Positions 2,077 through 64,000 of a stretch of DNA of 64,000 nt are shown here, piece by piece. The translations under genes and the position numbers were made by a program. Origin of the DNA: an uncultured Bacteroidia bacterium. Lineage in GTDB: Bacteria; Bacteroidota; Bacteroidia; Bacteroidales; CAJPTX01. Under the pieces are notes generated by a model, which saw only the letters and a list, made by a program, of their open reading frames with translations, ran no database searches and was not told the DNA's origin. Position 1 is the stretch's first letter; every line of letters starts with the position of its first letter. The DNA lies in the NCBI GenBank assembly GCA_938038735.1, contig CALHSW010000076.1, positions 413-64,412 of the forward strand. The letters are read 5' to 3'.

Positions 2077-3078
2077 ATGGAAGAGCGGCAGGAAGTGGAC
2101 ATTCGAGAGCTGAATGAGCGGATAGCGAAGGAGGCATCGTTTTTGGACATGGTGACGATGGAGATGGGGCGCGTGGTGGTGGGTCAGCGCCACCTTGTGG
2201 AGTCGTTACTGATAGGGATGTTGGCCGATGGGCACGTGCTGCTGGAGGGCGTGCCGGGGTTGGCTAAGACGCTGGCGATAAGCACGCTGTCGAAGATCGT
2301 GCAGGCGAAATTTGCGAGGGTGCAGTTCACGCCGGACCTACTGCCGGCCGATTTGATTGGCACGATGATATACAGCCAAAAGTCGGAGGTGTTCGAGGTG
2401 AAGCGGGGGCCGATATTTGCGAATTTTGTGCTGGCTGATGAGATTAACCGAGCGCCGGCGAAGGTGCAGAGTGCGCTGCTGCAGGCGATGCAGGAGCGAG
2501 AGGTGACGATAGGGGATACGACCTACGCACTGCCGAAGCCCTTTTTGGTGATGGCAACGCAGAATCCGATAGAGCAGGAGGGAACCTACCCGCTGCCCGA
2601 GGCGCAGGTGGATAGGTTCATGCTGAAGGTGGCGTTGGATTACCCCTCCAAGGAGGAGGAGCAGCAGATAGTAAAGCAGAACATCGGCGGGACATTCCCA
2701 ACGGCGAATTCGGTGATTAAGCCGGAGGATATAGAGCGTGCGCGCAGCGTGGTGCGGGATGTGTATCTCGACGAGAAAATCGCGCGCTACATTGTAGATA
2801 TAGTGTTCGCCACGCGAAGGCCTGAGGAGTACGGTATGGAAGAGTACAAGGCGATGATAGGCTTTGGCGGGTCGCCGCGTGCCAGCATAGGGCTGGCGAT
2901 GGCATCGAAGGCGTACGCATTCATAAAGCGGAGAGGGTACGTGGTGCCGGAGGATGTGCGTGCGGTATGCTACGATGTGCTGCGGCATAGGATAGGCCTC
3001 ACCTACGAGGCGGAGGCGGAGAATATCAGCTCGGAGGATATCATCACCGAGGTGCTCAATAAGGTGGAGGTGCCGTAG
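2077..3078 (+). CDS. MoxR-family AAA+ ATPase (first gene of the Bat-type operon)
   Basis: Walker A GVPGLAKT, Walker B/sensor region LADEINRAPAKVQSALLQAMQE, about 330 aa as typical for MoxR. Confidence 0.92.
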   Translation: MEERQEVDIRELNERIAKEASFLDMVTMEMGRVVVGQRHLVESLLIGMLADGHVLLEGVPGLAKTLAISTLSKIVQAKFARVQFTPDLLPADLIGTMIYSQKSEVFEVKRGPIFANFVLADEINRAPAKVQSALLQAMQEREVTIGDTTYALPKPFLVMATQNPIEQEGTYPLPEAQVDRFMLKVALDYPSKEEEQQIVKQNIGGTFPTANSVIKPEDIERARSVVRDVYLDEKIARYIVDIVFATRRPEEYGMEEYKAMIGFGGSPRASIGLAMASKAYAFIKRRGYVVPEDVRAVCYDVLRHRIGLTYEAEAENISSEDIITEVLNKVEVP

Positions 3079-3128
3079 TAGTAAGGTTTGCGGCGGAGGT
3101 AGGTTTGGTGCGAAAAGGAGATTAGAGT

Positions 3129-4031
3129 GTGAAAAGGACAGAGAACGAAGAGTCGCGGGAGCTGTTGCGACGGCTTCGCCGTATAGAGATACGGGCGCGG
3201 GGGCTGTCGCACCAGATATTCGCGGGGGAGTACCACAGTGCCTTCAAGGGGCAGGGGATGGCGTTCAGCGAGGTGCGTGAGTATCGCTACGGAGACGATG
3301 TGCGCAACATTGATTGGAACGTGACGGCGCGCCTTACGACACCGCATATAAAGGTATTTGAAGAGGAACGCGAGCAGACGGTGATGCTGCTGGTGGACGT
3401 GAGCGGGTCTCGGCAATTCGGGACGCAGGCACTGTCGAAGAAGAACGTTATGACGGAGGTGGCGGCAGTGCTGGCCTTTTCCGCGATACAGAATAACGAT
3501 AAGATAGGCGTGGTGCTGTTTAGCGATAAGATAGAGCTATTCATACCGCCGAAGAAGGGGCGAAAGCATATACTGCGCGTGATATGGGATTTGATGAGCT
3601 TTCAGCCGGAGAGCCAGAAGACGGATGTGGGTATGGCGATGCGCTACCTGACCAACGTGATAAAGAAGCGTTGCACAGCGTTCGTGTTGAGCGATTTCAT
3701 CGACTTTGATGGCGAGGGCTCGCCGCGGTTTGAGAGCGCACTGCGGATAGCGTCATCGCGGCATGACGTGGTGGCTATGCGGGTGTACGACCCGCGAGAG
3801 GCGGAGCTTCCGAAGGCGGGGGTGATGCGGATGGTAGATGGGGAGACAGGTGAGACCCTGTGGGTAAACACGTCGAGTAGGAGCGTGCGGGAGGCATTCG
3901 CCCAGGGGTGGGCGGAGCGGACGCAGCTACTGAAGCGGGTATGCTCCAAGGCTGGAGTAGATTTAGCTGAGCTGAGTACAGTGGAGGACTACGTGCCGCC
4001 GTTGATACAGCTGTTTAAGCGGAGGGGGTAA
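3129..4031 (+). CDS. DUF58 (VWA-like) protein, MoxR partner
   Basis: GTG start. Characteristic DUF58 stretch GEYHSAFKGQGMAFSEVREYRYGDDVRNIDWNVTAR. Immediately downstream of MoxR. Confidence 0.88.
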   Translation: MKRTENEESRELLRRLRRIEIRARGLSHQIFAGEYHSAFKGQGMAFSEVREYRYGDDVRNIDWNVTARLTTPHIKVFEEEREQTVMLLVDVSGSRQFGTQALSKKNVMTEVAAVLAFSAIQNNDKIGVVLFSDKIELFIPPKKGRKHILRVIWDLMSFQPESQKTDVGMAMRYLTNVIKKRCTAFVLSDFIDFDGEGSPRFESALRIASSRHDVVAMRVYDPREAELPKAGVMRMVDGETGETLWVNTSSRSVREAFAQGWAERTQLLKRVCSKAGVDLAELSTVEDYVPPLIQLFKRRG

Positions 4032-4038
4032 GAGAGCC

Positions 4039-5148
4039 ATGGTAGGAAAGTTGCGCAGAGACGTACTGTTATTAGCGTTGGGATTGCTGCTTTCGGTGGT
4101 CGCGAAGGGGCAGGCCACGATTACCACCCGACTGTCGCGCGATAGCGCATTGCTGGGAGACACGGTGGGCTATAGCGTGATGGCGCGGGGCGGGGGAGGT
4201 GCAGAGATATTTTTTGTGGAGCTGCCCGACACCATTGCGGGTGGCGGCGAGCTATGGGAGGCGCCACGGATTGACACGTTGGTGAATAGTGCGCAAGAGG
4301 TAGCCCTTCGCTTGCATATGGTAGTGACGAGCTACGATAGCGGCACAGTGGTTTTGCCGCGCTTCGGCGTGCTGGTGCGCCATGCGGGGGTGCTTGATAC
4401 CCTATTCAGCGAGCCTAAGGATCTTTACTTTTACCCAGCGCCGCGGGAGGCGGAGACAGCGGATATAAAGGATATTAGAGGACCTCTGAGGCAACGCATA
4501 ACGTTTGGAGAGGTGTGGCCATGGCTGCTGGGGGCGCTTGTGCTGGCCGCGTTGATTGTAGGGGTGGTTATGTACCGGCGGTACATGCGCAAAGGGGAGA
4601 TAGTGGAGGCAAAGCGGCGCTTGGTACCCCCCGATGAGTTGGCGCTGGATAGGCTGCGTCGGTTGCGCGAGGGGGAGGCGTGGCGTACGTTGGGGCTAAA
4701 GGAGTTCTACACAGAGCTAACCGATACGCTGCGAGAGTTTTTAGCGGCGGAATTCGGAATTCGCACGATGGAGTGTACAACGACCAAAATAGTCAACGAT
4801 TTACGAGCCGACAGCCGCTGCAAGCGGGAGTGGATCAAGGAGATAGATGGTATATTGCAACTGGCAGATTTAACGAAGTTTGCTCGCTTTGCGCCCACGG
4901 AGCAGGATTGTCTCTATTCGATTGGCACCACGGAGGTGCTGGTGCGGGAGGTGCACGCCGTGCTGCATGCAGGGGAACGAGAGGAGGATGAAGACGCAGA
5001 GGGTGAAGGCGCAGCGCATCCTGAGTCGGGGGATGCGGCTAGAGGAACCGAGAGCGAAGAGGAGAATGCGCAGCGGAATGCGGAACGCTATGGGCCGCGC
5101 CGTGGGGAAGGGGTGTCATCAACCCCGTTGGAAAGGAGGGAAGAGTAA
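4039..5148 (+). CDS. Hypothetical membrane protein of the Bat operon (signal peptide, one internal TM, acidic C-terminal tail)
   Basis: N-terminal signal-like LLLALGLLLSVVAKGQ, TM WPWLLGALVLAALIVGVVMY, E/D-rich tail. Its stop overlaps the batA ATG (TAATG). Confidence 0.75.
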   Translation: MVGKLRRDVLLLALGLLLSVVAKGQATITTRLSRDSALLGDTVGYSVMARGGGGAEIFFVELPDTIAGGGELWEAPRIDTLVNSAQEVALRLHMVVTSYDSGTVVLPRFGVLVRHAGVLDTLFSEPKDLYFYPAPREAETADIKDIRGPLRQRITFGEVWPWLLGALVLAALIVGVVMYRRYMRKGEIVEAKRRLVPPDELALDRLRRLREGEAWRTLGLKEFYTELTDTLREFLAAEFGIRTMECTTTKIVNDLRADSRCKREWIKEIDGILQLADLTKFARFAPTEQDCLYSIGTTEVLVREVHAVLHAGEREEDEDAEGEGAAHPESGDAARGTESEEENAQRNAERYGPRRGEGVSSTPLERREE

Positions 5149-25753: not shown

Positions 25754-25805
25754 TTCGCATCAAATTCGGATTTCTCCGGAGAAATCCGAATTTGATGCGA
25801 AGGGG
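25754..25805. repeat. Palindromic intergenic repeat, copy 1 (52 bp identical to 61632-61683; perfect 48-bp palindrome at 25754-25801)
   Basis: TTCGCATCAAATTCGGATTTCTCC|GGAGAAATCCGAATTTGATGCGAA is self-complementary around a central CCGG. The same 52-mer recurs at 61.63 kb. Confidence 0.9.
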
Positions 25806-60027: not shown

Positions 60028-61434
60028 CTATGCGCTTTCCAGTGATAGATGGGCTTTACACCGCTGAAGCAACTCGCCATCAACCCCAAGAAGCTCAGCG
60101 ATTTGTATAGCCTCAAGTGGCACGTCACCCGCAGCGTCCTCTTCAAGCGTATAGTCAATGTAGCGATTGATATTATCAAGGCCAAGGGCCCCCTCTACCC
60201 GCTCCTTCCTAAAGCCCTTCACCTTGAGCCGGTGGCAGGGTACGCTTATCCCGCCGTAATGGGTGGTAACAACCGCACGTACACCGCACGCCTGGAGAAG
60301 CTCCACCACTCCGCATACAATGGCTCGTCCCTCCGTGGGGTTCGTGGTGCGCGCCAGCTCATCAATGAGCACCAGCAATCGCTTACCCTCCTTCGCGGCT
60401 GTGATAATTCGGTTGACCCGCAGCATCTCTGCCCCAAACGACGACAGCCCCTCCCGATGATCCTGCCCATCGCCCATAGAGGTTAGCACCTCGTCCACCA
60501 AGGGCAATGTAGCCGAACGGGCAGCCACAAAAAGGCCGAATTGCGCCATGTACTGCGCCAGCTGAATGCTCTGCAAAAGCACGCTCTTACCCGCCATGTT
60601 CGCGCCTGTCACAATGGTTACACCATCGGGCAGCGCAACGTCAACGCGCTGAAATTTCGCCCCTCGTTCCGCAAGTTTGGCCGCCACCTCGGGGTGTTGC
60701 AGCCCTTCCAGCCGTAGCCTATCATCCCTAAGCACAGGCCTCGTCAATTCTAACTGCTGCGCCATGAAGGCCTTACCTAGTAGCAAGTCAAGCCGCGCCA
60801 CGCCTGCAAGCGCCTCTTCAAGCACGCCTGCAAATGGCTGCAGGCGGCGCGTCACGGCACGCCGCACCGCATCTTCTATCTCTACGCAGTGCAGTCTCTG
60901 CGCCTCTATGCTATCGTCGTCGGCTTTCTCCCGCTGCATCTGCTCCAGCAAGGTTCTCGCATCGCGTAGCTCATCGCTGTACTCATCGTATACGTAGAAA
61001 TGCGGTATCCGCTTCCCTTGGGGGTCAAGCACGGCAATCGCCTCATCAAGATCCGGCAACTCCACGCAGGTATAGCCCAACTCTCTTAGCTGCAGCCGCA
61101 CCTCCATTGCCCTTATCGCAAAGCTCTTAATCTCAAAGAGCTCAATATCATCACGTACTGATCCCCCATGCAGGTAGTTCAAGCTGCCCTGCACATCCTG
61201 AATTTGGCACATACGAGCCATTAAAAGGTCTCGCTGCGACACCCCTTCCTTAGCAAAAAATACCGACAGCGTCGACTCAATAGCCTCGTACTCTTCATTA
61301 AGCGCGTCAGCATCGTAGAGCATCGCCGACTCTCCGAGCGCACGCTGCCCAGGCCCAGAATGCACCTGCCAATTGTCCACCACGTAGCGCATGCCTGGCA
61401 CACTCTTTATCGCATCATGAAGTCTAAACGCCAT
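60028..61434 (-). CDS. MutS-related ATPase (MutS domain V only; no mismatch-binding or Smr domain)
   Basis: Walker A TGANMAGKSVLLQSI, Walker B LLVLIDELARTTNPTEG, THY motif. 468 aa. Confidence 0.82.
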   Translation of the reverse strand: MAFRLHDAIKSVPGMRYVVDNWQVHSGPGQRALGESAMLYDADALNEEYEAIESTLSVFFAKEGVSQRDLLMARMCQIQDVQGSLNYLHGGSVRDDIELFEIKSFAIRAMEVRLQLRELGYTCVELPDLDEAIAVLDPQGKRIPHFYVYDEYSDELRDARTLLEQMQREKADDDSIEAQRLHCVEIEDAVRRAVTRRLQPFAGVLEEALAGVARLDLLLGKAFMAQQLELTRPVLRDDRLRLEGLQHPEVAAKLAERGAKFQRVDVALPDGVTIVTGANMAGKSVLLQSIQLAQYMAQFGLFVAARSATLPLVDEVLTSMGDGQDHREGLSSFGAEMLRVNRIITAAKEGKRLLVLIDELARTTNPTEGRAIVCGVVELLQACGVRAVVTTHYGGISVPCHRLKVKGFRKERVEGALGLDNINRYIDYTLEEDAAGDVPLEAIQIAELLGVDGELLQRCKAHLSLESA

Positions 61435-61480: not shown

Positions 61481-61631
61481 GCGTAATTATTTCTAAATCC
61501 ATCTCGCCATACGCTCCCTCTGCACTCCTCCCCCTTTCTCTGCCTTAACCTTCGCAGCAAAAAAATGTATCCAAGGCACTGACAAAAGATGGGGTATAAG
61601 GGAGCATATATCGTACTGAAGAGGTACCCTC

Positions 61632-61683
61632 TTCGCATCAAATTCGGATTTCTCCGGAGAAATCCGAATTTGATGCGAAGGGG
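61632..61683. repeat. Palindromic intergenic repeat, copy 2 (52 bp identical to 25754-25805; perfect 50-bp palindrome at 61631-61680)
   Basis: Same 52-mer as copy 1. Here complementarity extends imperfectly to about 61624-61687. Confidence 0.9.
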
Positions 61684-61895
61684 GTGCGAGTTTGATGGCT
61701 CTTGGAAACGCCCCCACGGGAACCACTTGCCTTTTTTCCTCAATAGGATAAGCCGCTGAGAAACGTAGGTTCCCCATTTTGTCCTCAAAACAATCACACT
61801 TAGCATGACCGTTTACAATCCGATATCGCACAACGAGTTAAATTGCAATTACGACGACCGGACTTCCTAAAAAATGGCCTCGTTGCCGGTACGGA

Positions 61896-61926
61896 TTTGC
61901 GTATTCTCACTTTTGTTGTACCTTTG
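61896..61926 (+). promoter_or_regulatory. Canonical Bacteroidota promoter TTTG-N19-TACCTTTG with no protein-coding gene directly downstream
   Basis: -33 TTTG at 61896-61899 and -7 TACCTTTG at 61919-61926. Confidence 0.65.
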
Positions 61927-61932
61927 CGCTAG

Positions 61933-62006
61933 GGGAGGACCTTGAGATGTTCTCATCTTAAGGTTTGCGGCTCGGGCGGTGGTGGTACGCCTGAGCCGCT
62001 TTTTTT
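61933..62006 (+). ncRNA. Candidate ~75-nt small RNA or leader (two hairpins, the second an intrinsic terminator)
   Basis: Hairpin 1: CCTTGAGATG-TTCT-CATCTTAAGG (61940-61963). Hairpin 2: GCGGCTCGGGCG / CGCCTGAGCCGC (61967-61999) followed by seven T. The 5' end is inferred from the -7 box. Confidence 0.45.
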
Positions 62007-62135
62007 GTAATAATCCCCTTACGTAGGCTCTTTTTCTGGCGTCCTGCCGTAACGATTAAACCCTTTTTGCAAGCGCAAGGAAGGTCTATAGATTGCGTAG
62101 CGCGAATGATATTCAATAGCTAATGCATTTTTCAC

Positions 62136-62143
62136 TACTTTTG
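62136..62143 (+). promoter_or_regulatory. -7 box TACTTTTG upstream of the untracked long ORF
   Basis: Exact TAnnTTTG match 35 nt upstream of the ATG at 62178. Confidence 0.45.
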
Positions 62144-62177: not shown

Positions 62178-64000
62178 ATGTTTTGTATGTCATTTAATTT
62201 TTCTTGCCCTCCTATCGCTATGCGCTTGAGTCAAGCCATCAATGACTTATCGGATAGAATTAATTGCCTAGATGAGGCAGGGGCTAAGCATGACGATGCG
62301 GAGCGATTGGTGTATAACCTATTGCTATTATACCACAAATCGCTGAACAGAAGCATTCTATCGCGCCAAGCGCATTTTAAATTCGAGAAGGCAGCTCCTT
62401 ATGCTGACATTAGCGATGAGATGCTGGACGACTACAATTACGCCATGCGCACTCTCCTTACGCTATGTCCTTACAATGAGCGTTTTATTCGTTTCATAAA
62501 CTCTAAAACATCTACTGAAAACGCTACGCAAAACGATTTCCGCCCATACGATGCAGCGTTTTCAGCGCTACCTTTTATCAACTTTACGCCGCTCTGCCTC
62601 TACTCGCCCAATTTAGGGAAATTTTACATCTACCCCACCTTCATTTTGTACTATTCGCCCGCGTCTACCCTTCACGAGGTGGAGGTGCTTTCGCTCAAAC
62701 GAGGGATGGTGGATCTTGAAGTGCTCCCCGATGAAAATATGGATAGCGAGCGCACGGGGGCTTTAATTCGTATCTCGCTTTGGAAAAGCAACTTAACGTT
62801 GCAATTCGCATTCTCCCCTATAGGGATGGATATCTACGATGCACTCAGCACCCACTGCACCTCTTTCGGATTGCCAATCGGTAGCGTAAGTTATGCCAGA
62901 GAAGACGAAGACTCCATAAGTATCCCACTGCTTCGGTCGGCTACCCTACTCCACGATGGTGTCGCATCCATACCCGCCATAGCAGAATCCCTGCAACTCG
63001 ATTTGCGTACCGCGGCCGACACGTTAGCCGCGGCCTACAGCCTTGAGTGGTACGGCGTGAGCCAAAACGGCACGCCGTGGATTAGACCAATTAGCTATAC
63101 AGAATACACTCTCAAGGCCATTGGGAGCTATAGCACCATTTCAAGAAAAGAGGCCGATAGGATTTTTTTATCACGCATTTCAGCCGATTTCTTTAACGCC
63201 TCCCTATTCTACGTCAGAAGGTTGTTTCAGCTCGCCGGCATTACGGAGGAGCCAATAGCGCAGCCCTCCGTTTCCAAGGAGGAAGGGGTGGTCATTGACC
63301 TATTGGAAATCTCATTTAGCATTAAAAATTTCAATCTTTACCAGGACCTTGGCTCATTGCCAATAATGCAGGCTCTATTCATCGTCCTGCTTCCTGACGT
63401 TCCGCTCACGCTCCGCACCTTCAAATTTGCCTTTCTAAAATGGCCCCACGCCATGATTGTCGCCGCTTCCATTCTTGCGAGGGTAGATCGTTGCCCAGAA
63501 GTTGAGGATGCCAAGTTCTATACGGTACGGTACGCAGCCCAATCCTCAATGCGTGAGGCGAATGATGCGATTTCCACATTGCGTGGCATCGCGCAGCTTA
63601 TGGCCAATTGCTGCGGGATAGAAGCGCAGCAGGATTTCCCAAATCTCATCAAGAACCTTGCGCCTCGCACCAATATCCATGTCGGATTTGATCCATTCGG
63701 CGTGGCGTTGCCTGTGCTTGTCAAATATAATAAAATCATTGGCGATAATAATGCCCACCAAATTACATTCTTCTTGCTCTACCTCTCGTTTAGGATTCTC
63801 CATGAGATGCCCCATCGCCCCAAAGACACAACTAGGGCGTTCTTCTTTCTTAGCGACTGCTGGGGCACTCTCCCCTTCCTGTTCTATGAAACGGCGCTAC
63901 GCCTTGCGCAGCTACCCTTCCATTCTTTTCGCTACGCGCAGTATAATTTGAGCCGCAGGGGGATAGACCCGGAAGAGCTGATCGCGGCCTTTGAGAGAGC
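62178..64000 (+). CDS. Large hypothetical protein, 5' part only (more than 607 codons, runs off the window end); absent from the supplied ORF track
   Basis: Codon-by-codon reading from ATG 62178 (frame opens after TAA at 62121-62123) to 64000 finds no stop. Begins MFCMSFNFSCPPIAMRLSQAINDLSD.... HEMPH (HExxH) at 63801-63815. Alternative in-frame ATGs at 62187 and 62220. Confidence 0.85.
   Translation, partial: MFCMSFNFSCPPIAMRLSQAINDLSDRINCLDEAGAKHDDAERLVYNLLLLYHKSLNRSILSRQAHFKFEKAAPYADISDEMLDDYNYAMRTLLTLCPYNERFIRFINSKTSTENATQNDFRPYDAAFSALPFINFTPLCLYSPNLGKFYIYPTFILYYSPASTLHEVEVLSLKRGMVDLEVLPDENMDSERTGALIRISLWKSNLTLQFAFSPIGMDIYDALSTHCTSFGLPIGSVSYAREDEDSISIPLLRSATLLHDGVASIPAIAESLQLDLRTAADTLAAAYSLEWYGVSQNGTPWIRPISYTEYTLKAIGSYSTISRKEADRIFLSRISADFFNASLFYVRRLFQLAGITEEPIAQPSVSKEEGVVIDLLEISFSIKNFNLYQDLGSLPIMQALFIVLLPDVPLTLRTFKFAFLKWPHAMIVAASILARVDRCPEVEDAKFYTVRYAAQSSMREANDAISTLRGIAQLMANCCGIEAQQDFPNLIKNLAPRTNIHVGFDPFGVALPVLVKYNKIIGDNNAHQITFFLLYLSFRILHEMPHRPKDTTRAFFFLSDCWGTLPFLFYETALRLAQLPFHSFRYAQYNLSRRGIDPEELIAAFER

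Follow-up and report, generated by a model that had tools for sequence, protein, structure and literature searches.

The question raised by this locus is whether the long open frame that runs off the 3' end of the analyzed stretch of DNA is a gene and, if so, what kind of protein it encodes. The stretch (hereafter, the window) comprises 64,000 nucleotides of contig CALHSW010000076.1 from an uncultured Bacteroidia bacterium, and a first-pass annotation had described the frame as encoding a large protein of no recognised family, possibly a metallopeptidase. The long frame proves to be a genuine gene, and its product is a rare protein that evolves fast and has no annotation. The C-terminus of this protein is shown, in a predicted structure, as an AAA+ fold closest to the CbbX type, with the catalytic residues lost, and in all four subfamilies found the gene is directly followed by one for a transporter of the MATE family (MatE). 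We give about even chances to the reading that the product is an AAA+-derived, non-catalytic protein that contacts the co-encoded MATE exporter and serves it as an adaptor or regulator.

A long frame missing from the ORF list

Read on the plus strand from the ATG at 62178, the frame reaches position 64000 through 607 sense codons with zero stops, as had been reported, and with the base composition of the window the chance of 607 codons staying open is about 3e-13. The closest in-frame stop on the 5' side is the TAA at 62121. The GC content at codon positions 1, 2 and 3 of the frame is 50, 40 and 57%, respectively, a coding-like pattern; the overall value of 47% that had been given is near the 48.9% measured for the long open reading frame (ORF), the whole window being at 52.5%. 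The ORF list used for the annotation indeed contains zero ORFs of 60 or more amino acids between 61831 and 63518. This gap is an artefact of the listing, not biology, because any ORF that continues past the end of the source is left out by the lister.

The frame conservation on which the first-pass annotation made its reading depend is found over the full length, at 763-774 codons, in 10 loci (L001-L009 and L049). The gene is judged to be real because the frame is open and is kept at this length in these loci despite 63% amino acid divergence. By comparison with the full-length copies, the window carries the first ~78% of a 774-codon gene, with the final ~170 codons past 64000:

62187..64000, plus strand: coding sequence, 5' part (open frame; codons 1-604 of the 774-codon gene)

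The two minus-strand ORFs in this region, 63518-63739 and 63546-63815, are both nested inside the long frame and are consistent with antisense by-products of it, as had been proposed. These ORFs (73 and 89 amino acids, 63518-63815) are likewise open in the 88%-identical locus L002 (11299-11596); in the distant clade of L004, minus-strand ORFs have boundaries that differ from those in the window.

A small family without a profile

A search of 5.8 billion proteins yielded only eight clusters of the form encoded in the window (hereafter, the long form), which split into P0001-P0004, with 89-100% identity to the window protein and 763 amino acids as called, and P0005-P0008, with 35-40% identity and 763-773 amino acids. 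When 1.84 billion representatives were searched exhaustively with a profile, the only additions were P0010 (830 amino acids) and P0013 (866 amino acids), both remote relatives of full length, and some fragments. The same 5.8 billion proteins contain nine clusters (P0015-P0023) of a short form of ~550 amino acids, which is found as the ORF directly 5' of the MATE orthologue in L019, L021, L022 and L023. The short form matches the hidden Markov model of the family with E values of 7e-10 to 3e-4 in a small candidate set, and hhalign aligns the long and short forms with an E value of 5e-5 over 476 collinear columns, from long-form residue 265 to 765. On this alignment, the two forms are evidently homologous and appear to share a core of ~480 collinear columns that consists of a winged helix, a helical domain and an inactive AAA+ module. 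Missing from the short form are the ~250 residues with which the long form begins, comprising the N-terminal helices and the beta domain. P0010 and P0013 share the core and, as read from their sequences, begin with a hydrophobic, putatively transmembrane helix that has basic residues next to it, so that these relatives would sit at the membrane, as the transporter does; P0013 additionally bears a charged, probably coiled-coil stretch. The four subfamilies (the long form, the short form, P0010 and P0013) show a mutual identity of 12-17%.

That no family had been recognised in the window protein is borne out by the searches: nothing was found in Pfam, NCBIfam, PADLOC or PHROG, or by phmmer against the PDB sequences, even at E values of 1-10. 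Pfam gives zero matches for the eight full-length family members and no domain for the short form, P0010 or P0013, and none of the database sources names any member. An unannotated protein family with three architectures is now defined, and no Pfam or NCBIfam model covers it. The detection of so few relatives is probably due to the fast divergence of the protein. Between the clade of the window and that of L004 and L008, the long protein is 36-37% identical, compared with 79-81% for ParC, 70-71% for PurD, 79-80% for the Asp-Al_Ex permease, 77-78% for MatE and 80% for Rho, so that it appears to diverge roughly three times faster than the surrounding genes.

The scan of the GTDB representative genomes with the family alignment detected no long-form relative, and that of the metagenomes of the Joint Genome Institute (JGI) detected a single locus, L049, which is part of the assembly QWCB01, one of 29 genomes from a study of the human pregnancy (vaginal, gut and oral) microbiome (PMC6169887). 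Other members were recovered from a genital sample of a macaque and a skin sample of bovine origin, and the family looks restricted to animal-associated Bacteroidia. Indirect pointers to the source organism are, besides these habitats, the Bacteroidetes-type promoter, a weak DUF6057 match and the nearest MATE relatives, which belong to uncultured Bacteroidia; from GC content and habitat, a Porphyromonas-like genus may be guessed. The closest MATE orthologue in GTDB is only 61% identical, although metagenome assemblies hold long-form relatives with 88-100% identity; the representative set lacks the lineage or, alternatively, the stretches concerned have been masked in the collection. The practical reach of the findings is limited by the very small size of the family in the current databases and by its seeming confinement to animal-associated bacteria.

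A predicted AAA+ fold with degenerate catalytic motifs

The full-length AlphaFold2 model, built on a shallow alignment of eight sequences, has a mean predicted local distance difference test score (pLDDT) of 45. Residues 540-758 are modeled with pLDDT of 70-84 as five beta-alpha units, after which four helices form a lid. The search of the PDB with Foldseek yielded 43 matches with E values of 1e-3 or lower, all of them AAA+ proteins to judge by the entry descriptions. The first four places are taken by the Rubisco activase CbbX (3syk and 3syl among them), with E values of 2.4e-6 to 4e-5, followed by, among others, ORC, RFC, Rif2, Hda, Vps4, p97, chains of the Escherichia coli clamp loader and Ycf2-FtsHi. 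The module starts in the window, and the remainder, including the Walker B position (residue 602 of P0001) and the helical lid, lies past 64000:

63834..64000, plus strand: start of the AAA+-like module (beta1, alpha1, beta2), from AlphaFold2 and Foldseek
63864..63878, plus strand: degenerate Walker A position GTLPF (GxGK[ST] in active AAA+ proteins), read from sequence

The resemblance to the CbbX/SpoVK/EccA type of the classic AAA+ clade (CbbX structures 3syk, 3syl and 3zuh) spans the predicted C-terminal 230 residues, with an alpha-beta core and a helical lid. We also take the sequence pattern to be like that of the CbbX group: strand beta-1 is followed by a Gly-rich loop, 'A.G.L...' precedes the Walker B strand, and after an 'I.F..Y' strand comes a lid that ends in 'It.eDi'. 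Unlike CbbX, SpoVK and EccA, the window protein lacks the Walker A lysine, the Walker B Asp-Glu pair and any match to an AAA profile, contains an unrelated N-terminal region of 530 residues, and has a MATE transporter as its genomic partner. The C-terminal module probably descends from CbbX/SpoVK-type AAA+ ATPases.

The two nucleotide-binding positions read as follows in the four subfamilies:

Long form: Walker A position GTLPF, Walker B position VLVVNI
Short form: Walker A position GRGQR, Walker B position IYFYNF
P0010: Walker A position GMGLV, Walker B position LVLYNL
P0013: Walker A position GNGQL, Walker B position YYFMNL

The long-form consensus at the Walker A position is G[ST][LI][PS]F. 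All four subfamilies have P, Q or L where the canonical Walker A lysine would stand, the Ser/Thr is also gone, and a conserved Asn with a hydrophobic residue takes the place of Asp-Glu in Walker B. Because both the lysine and the acidic pair are missing, ATP hydrolysis is not expected, and the AAA+ module is likely to be catalytically dead. Given that this loss is common to the four subfamilies, it must be ancient, predating their split, with the fold since kept as a non-catalytic module. An active AAA+ motor, that is, a remodelling ATPase or activase like CbbX, SpoVK or EccA that uses non-canonical residues for ATP, would account for the fold, for CbbX being the best structural match and for the P-loop glycines G549 and G597, which are invariant in 12 of 12 sequences. 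We nevertheless regard such a motor as very unlikely, because every member of the four subfamilies lacks the Walker A Lys and Ser/Thr as well as the two acidic residues of Walker B, and no AAA profile reaches significance: Pfam searches with 12 C-terminal domains gave a match for one member only, AAA_32 at an E value of 0.015. With neither the Walker motifs nor a profile match, the protein is not to be filed as a member of the AAA+ ATPase family.

Retention of the fold as a structural or binding module after catalytic loss is known from inactive AAA+ subunits, such as clamp-loader delta and delta-prime, yeast Rif2 and chloroplast Ycf2/FtsHi, and in this respect the window protein would be alike. 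It differs from these proteins in domain and genomic context and shows no detectable sequence relationship to them. If the assignment is true, the family would add a case from bacteria in which an AAA+ fold persisted for longer than a family-level time span after catalysis was lost.

The HEMPH string

Immediately before the AAA+-like module lies the string that had suggested a metallopeptidase, in frame and at the position given:

63801..63815, plus strand: HEMPH, an HExxH-like string (absent in P0005-P0008; proline-containing; in the linker before strand beta-1)

The idea of a zinc metallopeptidase with HEMPH as its active site is in line with the presence of the string throughout the clade of the window and with an invariant Glu (E557 of P0001) located 26 residues downstream of it in the long form. 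This Glu, however, is part of alpha-1, a helix of the AAA+ fold. Among the eight aligned sequences, only those of the clade with 88-100% identity to the window protein (P0001-P0004) carry HEMPH; the string is missing from four of the eight homologue clusters, with AAIIP-P, TTAMP-T, VAAAPRT and DEIIH-H in the respective columns of P0005-P0008, and there is no counterpart in the short form. The string has Pro at position 4 and, in the AlphaFold2 model, is located at the end of the last helix of the central region and in the linker before strand beta-1 of the AAA+-like fold, not in the core of a helix, and no peptidase family profile in Pfam or NCBIfam and no peptidase among the PDB sequences matches the window protein (E values up to 1-10). 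The first-pass annotation had made its metallopeptidase idea depend on conservation of the motif in homologues, and on this count the idea fails. To all appearances, HEMPH resembles HExxH by chance and forms no zinc site, a peptidase acting through it is scarcely credible, and a false lead is thereby removed.

Pairing with a MATE transporter gene

The strongest functional clue available comes from the gene that follows. MatE is found next to the long form in every locus that extends far enough, starting 17-21 bp past the stop codon in L001-L005, L007-L009 and L049; in L001 it occupies 2871-4244, and for the gene in the window it lies beyond 64000. A scan of the GTDB genomes with a MATE alignment turned up L019, L021, L022 and L023, metagenome-assembled genomes of uncultured Bacteroidia; in these and in L050, the short-form gene runs into MatE or ends no more than 57 bp before it, and further short-form members show the same arrangement upstream of a MATE gene. 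The MATE gene lies 17 bp downstream of P0010 and overlaps P0013 by 8 bp. The MATE proteins are orthologous across the subfamilies, with 55-65% identity, compared with 12-17% for their upstream partners, and MatE is the only gene common to all four subfamilies, the remaining flanking genes differing between the groups. It is the survival of the pair, with operon-like spacing, through both rearrangement and sequence divergence that makes it so informative. This spacing suggests that the long gene and the MATE gene are co-transcribed, and the pairing points to a physical or functional interaction between their products.

A role unrelated to the transporter could also be envisaged, for example, in DNA replication or repair as a non-catalytic AAA+ subunit of the clamp-loader or initiator type, with the adjacency to MatE simply inherited. 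Assemblies of the clamp-loader and initiator type contain naturally degenerate AAA+ subunits; the Foldseek matches include ORC, RFC, E. coli clamp loader chains, Hda and Rif2; the short-form gene follows DnaN-like and DnaQ-like genes, and the gene in the window is close to those for ParC and a MutS-domain ATPase. However, these replication-type neighbours are not common to the subfamilies, as only MatE is, a divergence about three times that of the housekeeping neighbours would be unusual for a core replication factor, and the best structural matches resemble the CbbX/SpoVK type rather than the clamp-loader type. The pattern around Walker B and in the lid is presumably also closer to CbbX/SpoVK, in our own, unscored reading. 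Such a role is therefore considered quite unlikely.

The N-terminal and central regions

Upstream of the AAA+-like module, four further regions are discerned, all of them encoded within the window:

62187..62483, plus strand: N-terminal helical segment of ~100 amino acids (helices predicted with low confidence; motif LLxxYHxSL conserved)
62550..62864, plus strand: beta-rich domain with a helix cap, tentatively PH-like (cropped AlphaFold2 model; pLDDT of 80-86 for a block, the first strands)
62919..63086, plus strand: winged-helix-like module of three helices and a beta hairpin, net acidic (cropped model, pLDDT ~56-75)
63096..63809, plus strand: family-specific helical region (from alignments; model pLDDT below 50)

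The full-length model is poor across residues 1-535, and the beta-rich and winged-helix-like parts are described from a cropped AlphaFold2 model of residues 89-308, which has a mean pLDDT of 66 and local values up to 86. The N-terminal helical segment is missing from the short-form relatives. The beta-rich domain consists of ~8 strands and a C-terminal helix, with the invariant motifs LPFINFT.LCL and G.FY.YPT.IL.Y; PH-like domains are seven-stranded beta-sandwiches that a C-terminal helix closes, and the modeled topology fits this, but the likeness is tentative. The helical region, residues ~293-530, contains the motifs that are best conserved across all subfamilies, SADFFNASLFYVRRLFQLA (63180-63236) and SLPIMQALF (63354-63380), with the superfamily-wide forms S.(D/E)(F/Y)F.ASL.YV.R and SLP..Q..F; among the 12 sequences, P381 and F387 are invariant, and F325, A327, L329 and Q384 nearly so.

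The winged-helix-like module is present in all four subfamilies, and the hhalign match between the long and short forms begins there. It brings up a precedent, the MepR-MepA pair of Staphylococcus aureus, in which a MarR-family winged-helix repressor of ~140 amino acids, dimeric and with a basic recognition helix, has its gene immediately before mepA, which encodes a MATE pump. The window protein is similar to MepR in that it contains a predicted winged helix and is encoded directly upstream of a MATE gene in the same direction, and it could, by analogy, be a transcription regulator of the transporter operon whose winged helix binds the promoter while the inactive AAA+ and PH-like parts sense a signal. 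The topology is predicted, with moderate model confidence (H-H-H-beta-beta at pLDDT 56-75), and kept in every subfamily, and the gene order fits; no winged-helix protein is among the top 50 Foldseek matches of the cropped model. Unlike that of MepR, however, the winged helix is acidic, embedded in a protein of 774 amino acids, far larger than pump repressors, and matches neither MarR nor any other helix-turn-helix (HTH) profile, Pfam searches with the window protein and the eight family members included. By count, the module has ~3 basic versus 5-6 acidic residues, and its third helix carries 0-1 basic residues in both clades, which argues against DNA binding. Furthermore, two of the subfamilies appear to be membrane-anchored. 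Taken together, these observations make a regulator of the operon unlikely.

A possible partner of the MATE exporter

If the protein is, instead, an adaptor or regulator of the exporter, the following sequence of events can be envisaged. The gene would be transcribed from its own TAnnTTTG promoter, together with the MATE gene, to give a cytoplasmic, non-enzymatic, multi-domain protein; the absence of a signal peptide, noted from the start, is confirmed. From the N-terminus, this protein would consist of helices, a beta-sandwich (tentatively PH-like), the acidic winged-helix module, the family-specific helical domain and the AAA+ fold. It might then serve as an adaptor, regulator or scaffold that controls the assembly, activity or substrate supply of the exporter, with the inactive AAA+ module providing a platform for oligomerisation or binding.

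Several observations weigh against this reading. The AAA+ assignment depends on a structure predicted from the shallow alignment of eight sequences, the Foldseek TM-scores are modest (0.35-0.45 on the target), and neither the Pfam searches nor those of the PDB sequences with profiles of the C-terminal domain and the short form gave anything relevant. For the cropped model, the best Foldseek E value, 0.026, is not significant, even if PH, GLUE and PH-GRAM domains recur among the matches with TM-scores of 0.22-0.47. Six Bacteroidia genomes (L010, L013, L017, L018, L020 and L024) have a MATE orthologue with 52-61% identity and no upstream partner, so that the partner is no universal requirement of the transporter, and the two genes could be neighbours through a gene order inherited within a single bacterial class.

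In general, MATE proteins are regarded as secondary transporters that work by themselves, and a dedicated partner subunit would therefore be new; a literature search for a link of MATE proteins to AAA+ proteins or pseudo-ATPases returned nothing relevant. If the pairing is functional, some MATE exporters of host-associated Bacteroidia, members of a transporter class relevant to the efflux of drugs and metabolites, use a dedicated cytoplasmic partner. The broader proposal, namely, that there is a new class of cytoplasmic MATE partners in which an anciently inactivated CbbX-like AAA+ module and the helical domain dock to gate, assemble or feed the exporter, with some members anchored in the membrane, is possible but doubtful. 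We rate the architecture and the genomic partnership as novel and as built on a known fold.

Start codon and promoter

The ATG at 62178, from which the frame had been read, is not the likely start: in the 88-89%-identical loci L002 and L003 the position is GTA, and the start is off by 9 nt. The ATG at 62187 is kept in both loci and aligns with the ATG of the distant-clade loci L004, L007 and L008. Gene callers place the start at the ATG at 62220 (P0001-P0004) and, likewise, at the second ATG in P0007. The 11 codons between 62187 and 62220 are, however, conserved as protein (..CPPIAMRLSQAI versus ..CPRIAKPIAKAI), and a mechanical ORF call from the conserved ATG in L002 and L049 gives 774 amino acids. 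Conservation thus supports 62187 as the true start and 62178 as a lineage-specific ATG, which corrects both the earlier reading and the gene callers.

The promoter box had been placed correctly, 35 nt before 62178:

62136..62143, plus strand: Bacteroidetes-type -7 box TACTTTTG (read from sequence; consensus TAnnTTTG)

TAnnTTTG is the known promoter consensus of Bacteroidetes. Both the box and its preceding T-rich stretch occur with the same spacing to the start in the window, L004, L007, L008 and L009, and also in L001-L003. Judging from the consensus, the gene is probably driven by its own conserved promoter of this type.

Gene neighbourhood

The upstream side of the locus carries ParC, a DUF6057-like gene, PurD, the permease and a MutS-domain ATPase, and the other side carries MatE, a PGA_cap protein, Rho and TamB. 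This is a housekeeping neighbourhood, not an island. An anti-phage defence or phage protein was considered and rejected, given the empty PADLOC and PHROG searches and a stable neighbourhood in place of a variable island. The divergent neighbour at 60028-61434 on the minus strand is a MutS-domain-V ATPase that scores 410 bits against the NCBIfam model KamC (cut-off 300), the reactivase ATPase of lysine 5,6-aminomutase; no aminomutase genes are visible near it. In the clade of L004 and L005, the KamC slot is occupied by an unrelated ORF of 207 amino acids that belongs to no family.

The short form is preceded by genes for a DnaN-like protein, a DnaQ/RNase T-like exonuclease and a protein of ~185 amino acids (L019 5621-8314; L050 1326-3989; L051 1338-3992). 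The DnaN-like protein is divergent, with weak beta-clamp domain matches only, and the ~185-amino-acid protein belongs to no family; the possibility that the latter is the split-off N-terminus of the long form is unsupported (hhalign E value of 0.4).

The gene does adjoin a small RNA (sRNA)-like unit and a palindromic repeat, as had been noted. The sRNA-like unit at 61920-62007 on the plus strand has a TAnnTTTG box of its own, TACCTTTG (61920-61927), followed by ~75 nt with two hairpins, the second of which is a GC-rich terminator with a U tract. Rfam contains no family for the RNA-like intergenic elements, the best match of this unit being suhB/mmgR at 18 bits and an E value of 0.36. The unit is kept in both clades (the window, L002, L004, L008 and, in part, L009), with compensatory changes in 8 of the 25 predicted pairs. 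The palindrome at 61626-61685, intergenic and 5' of the long gene, is perfect, with 30-nt arms and zero spacer. Its 42-nt core recurs in the window at 25757-25798, with 0 matches expected by chance, the copy at 61626 is conserved in L002, and the repeat looks like a dispersed palindromic element of the REP-like (repetitive extragenic palindromic) kind.

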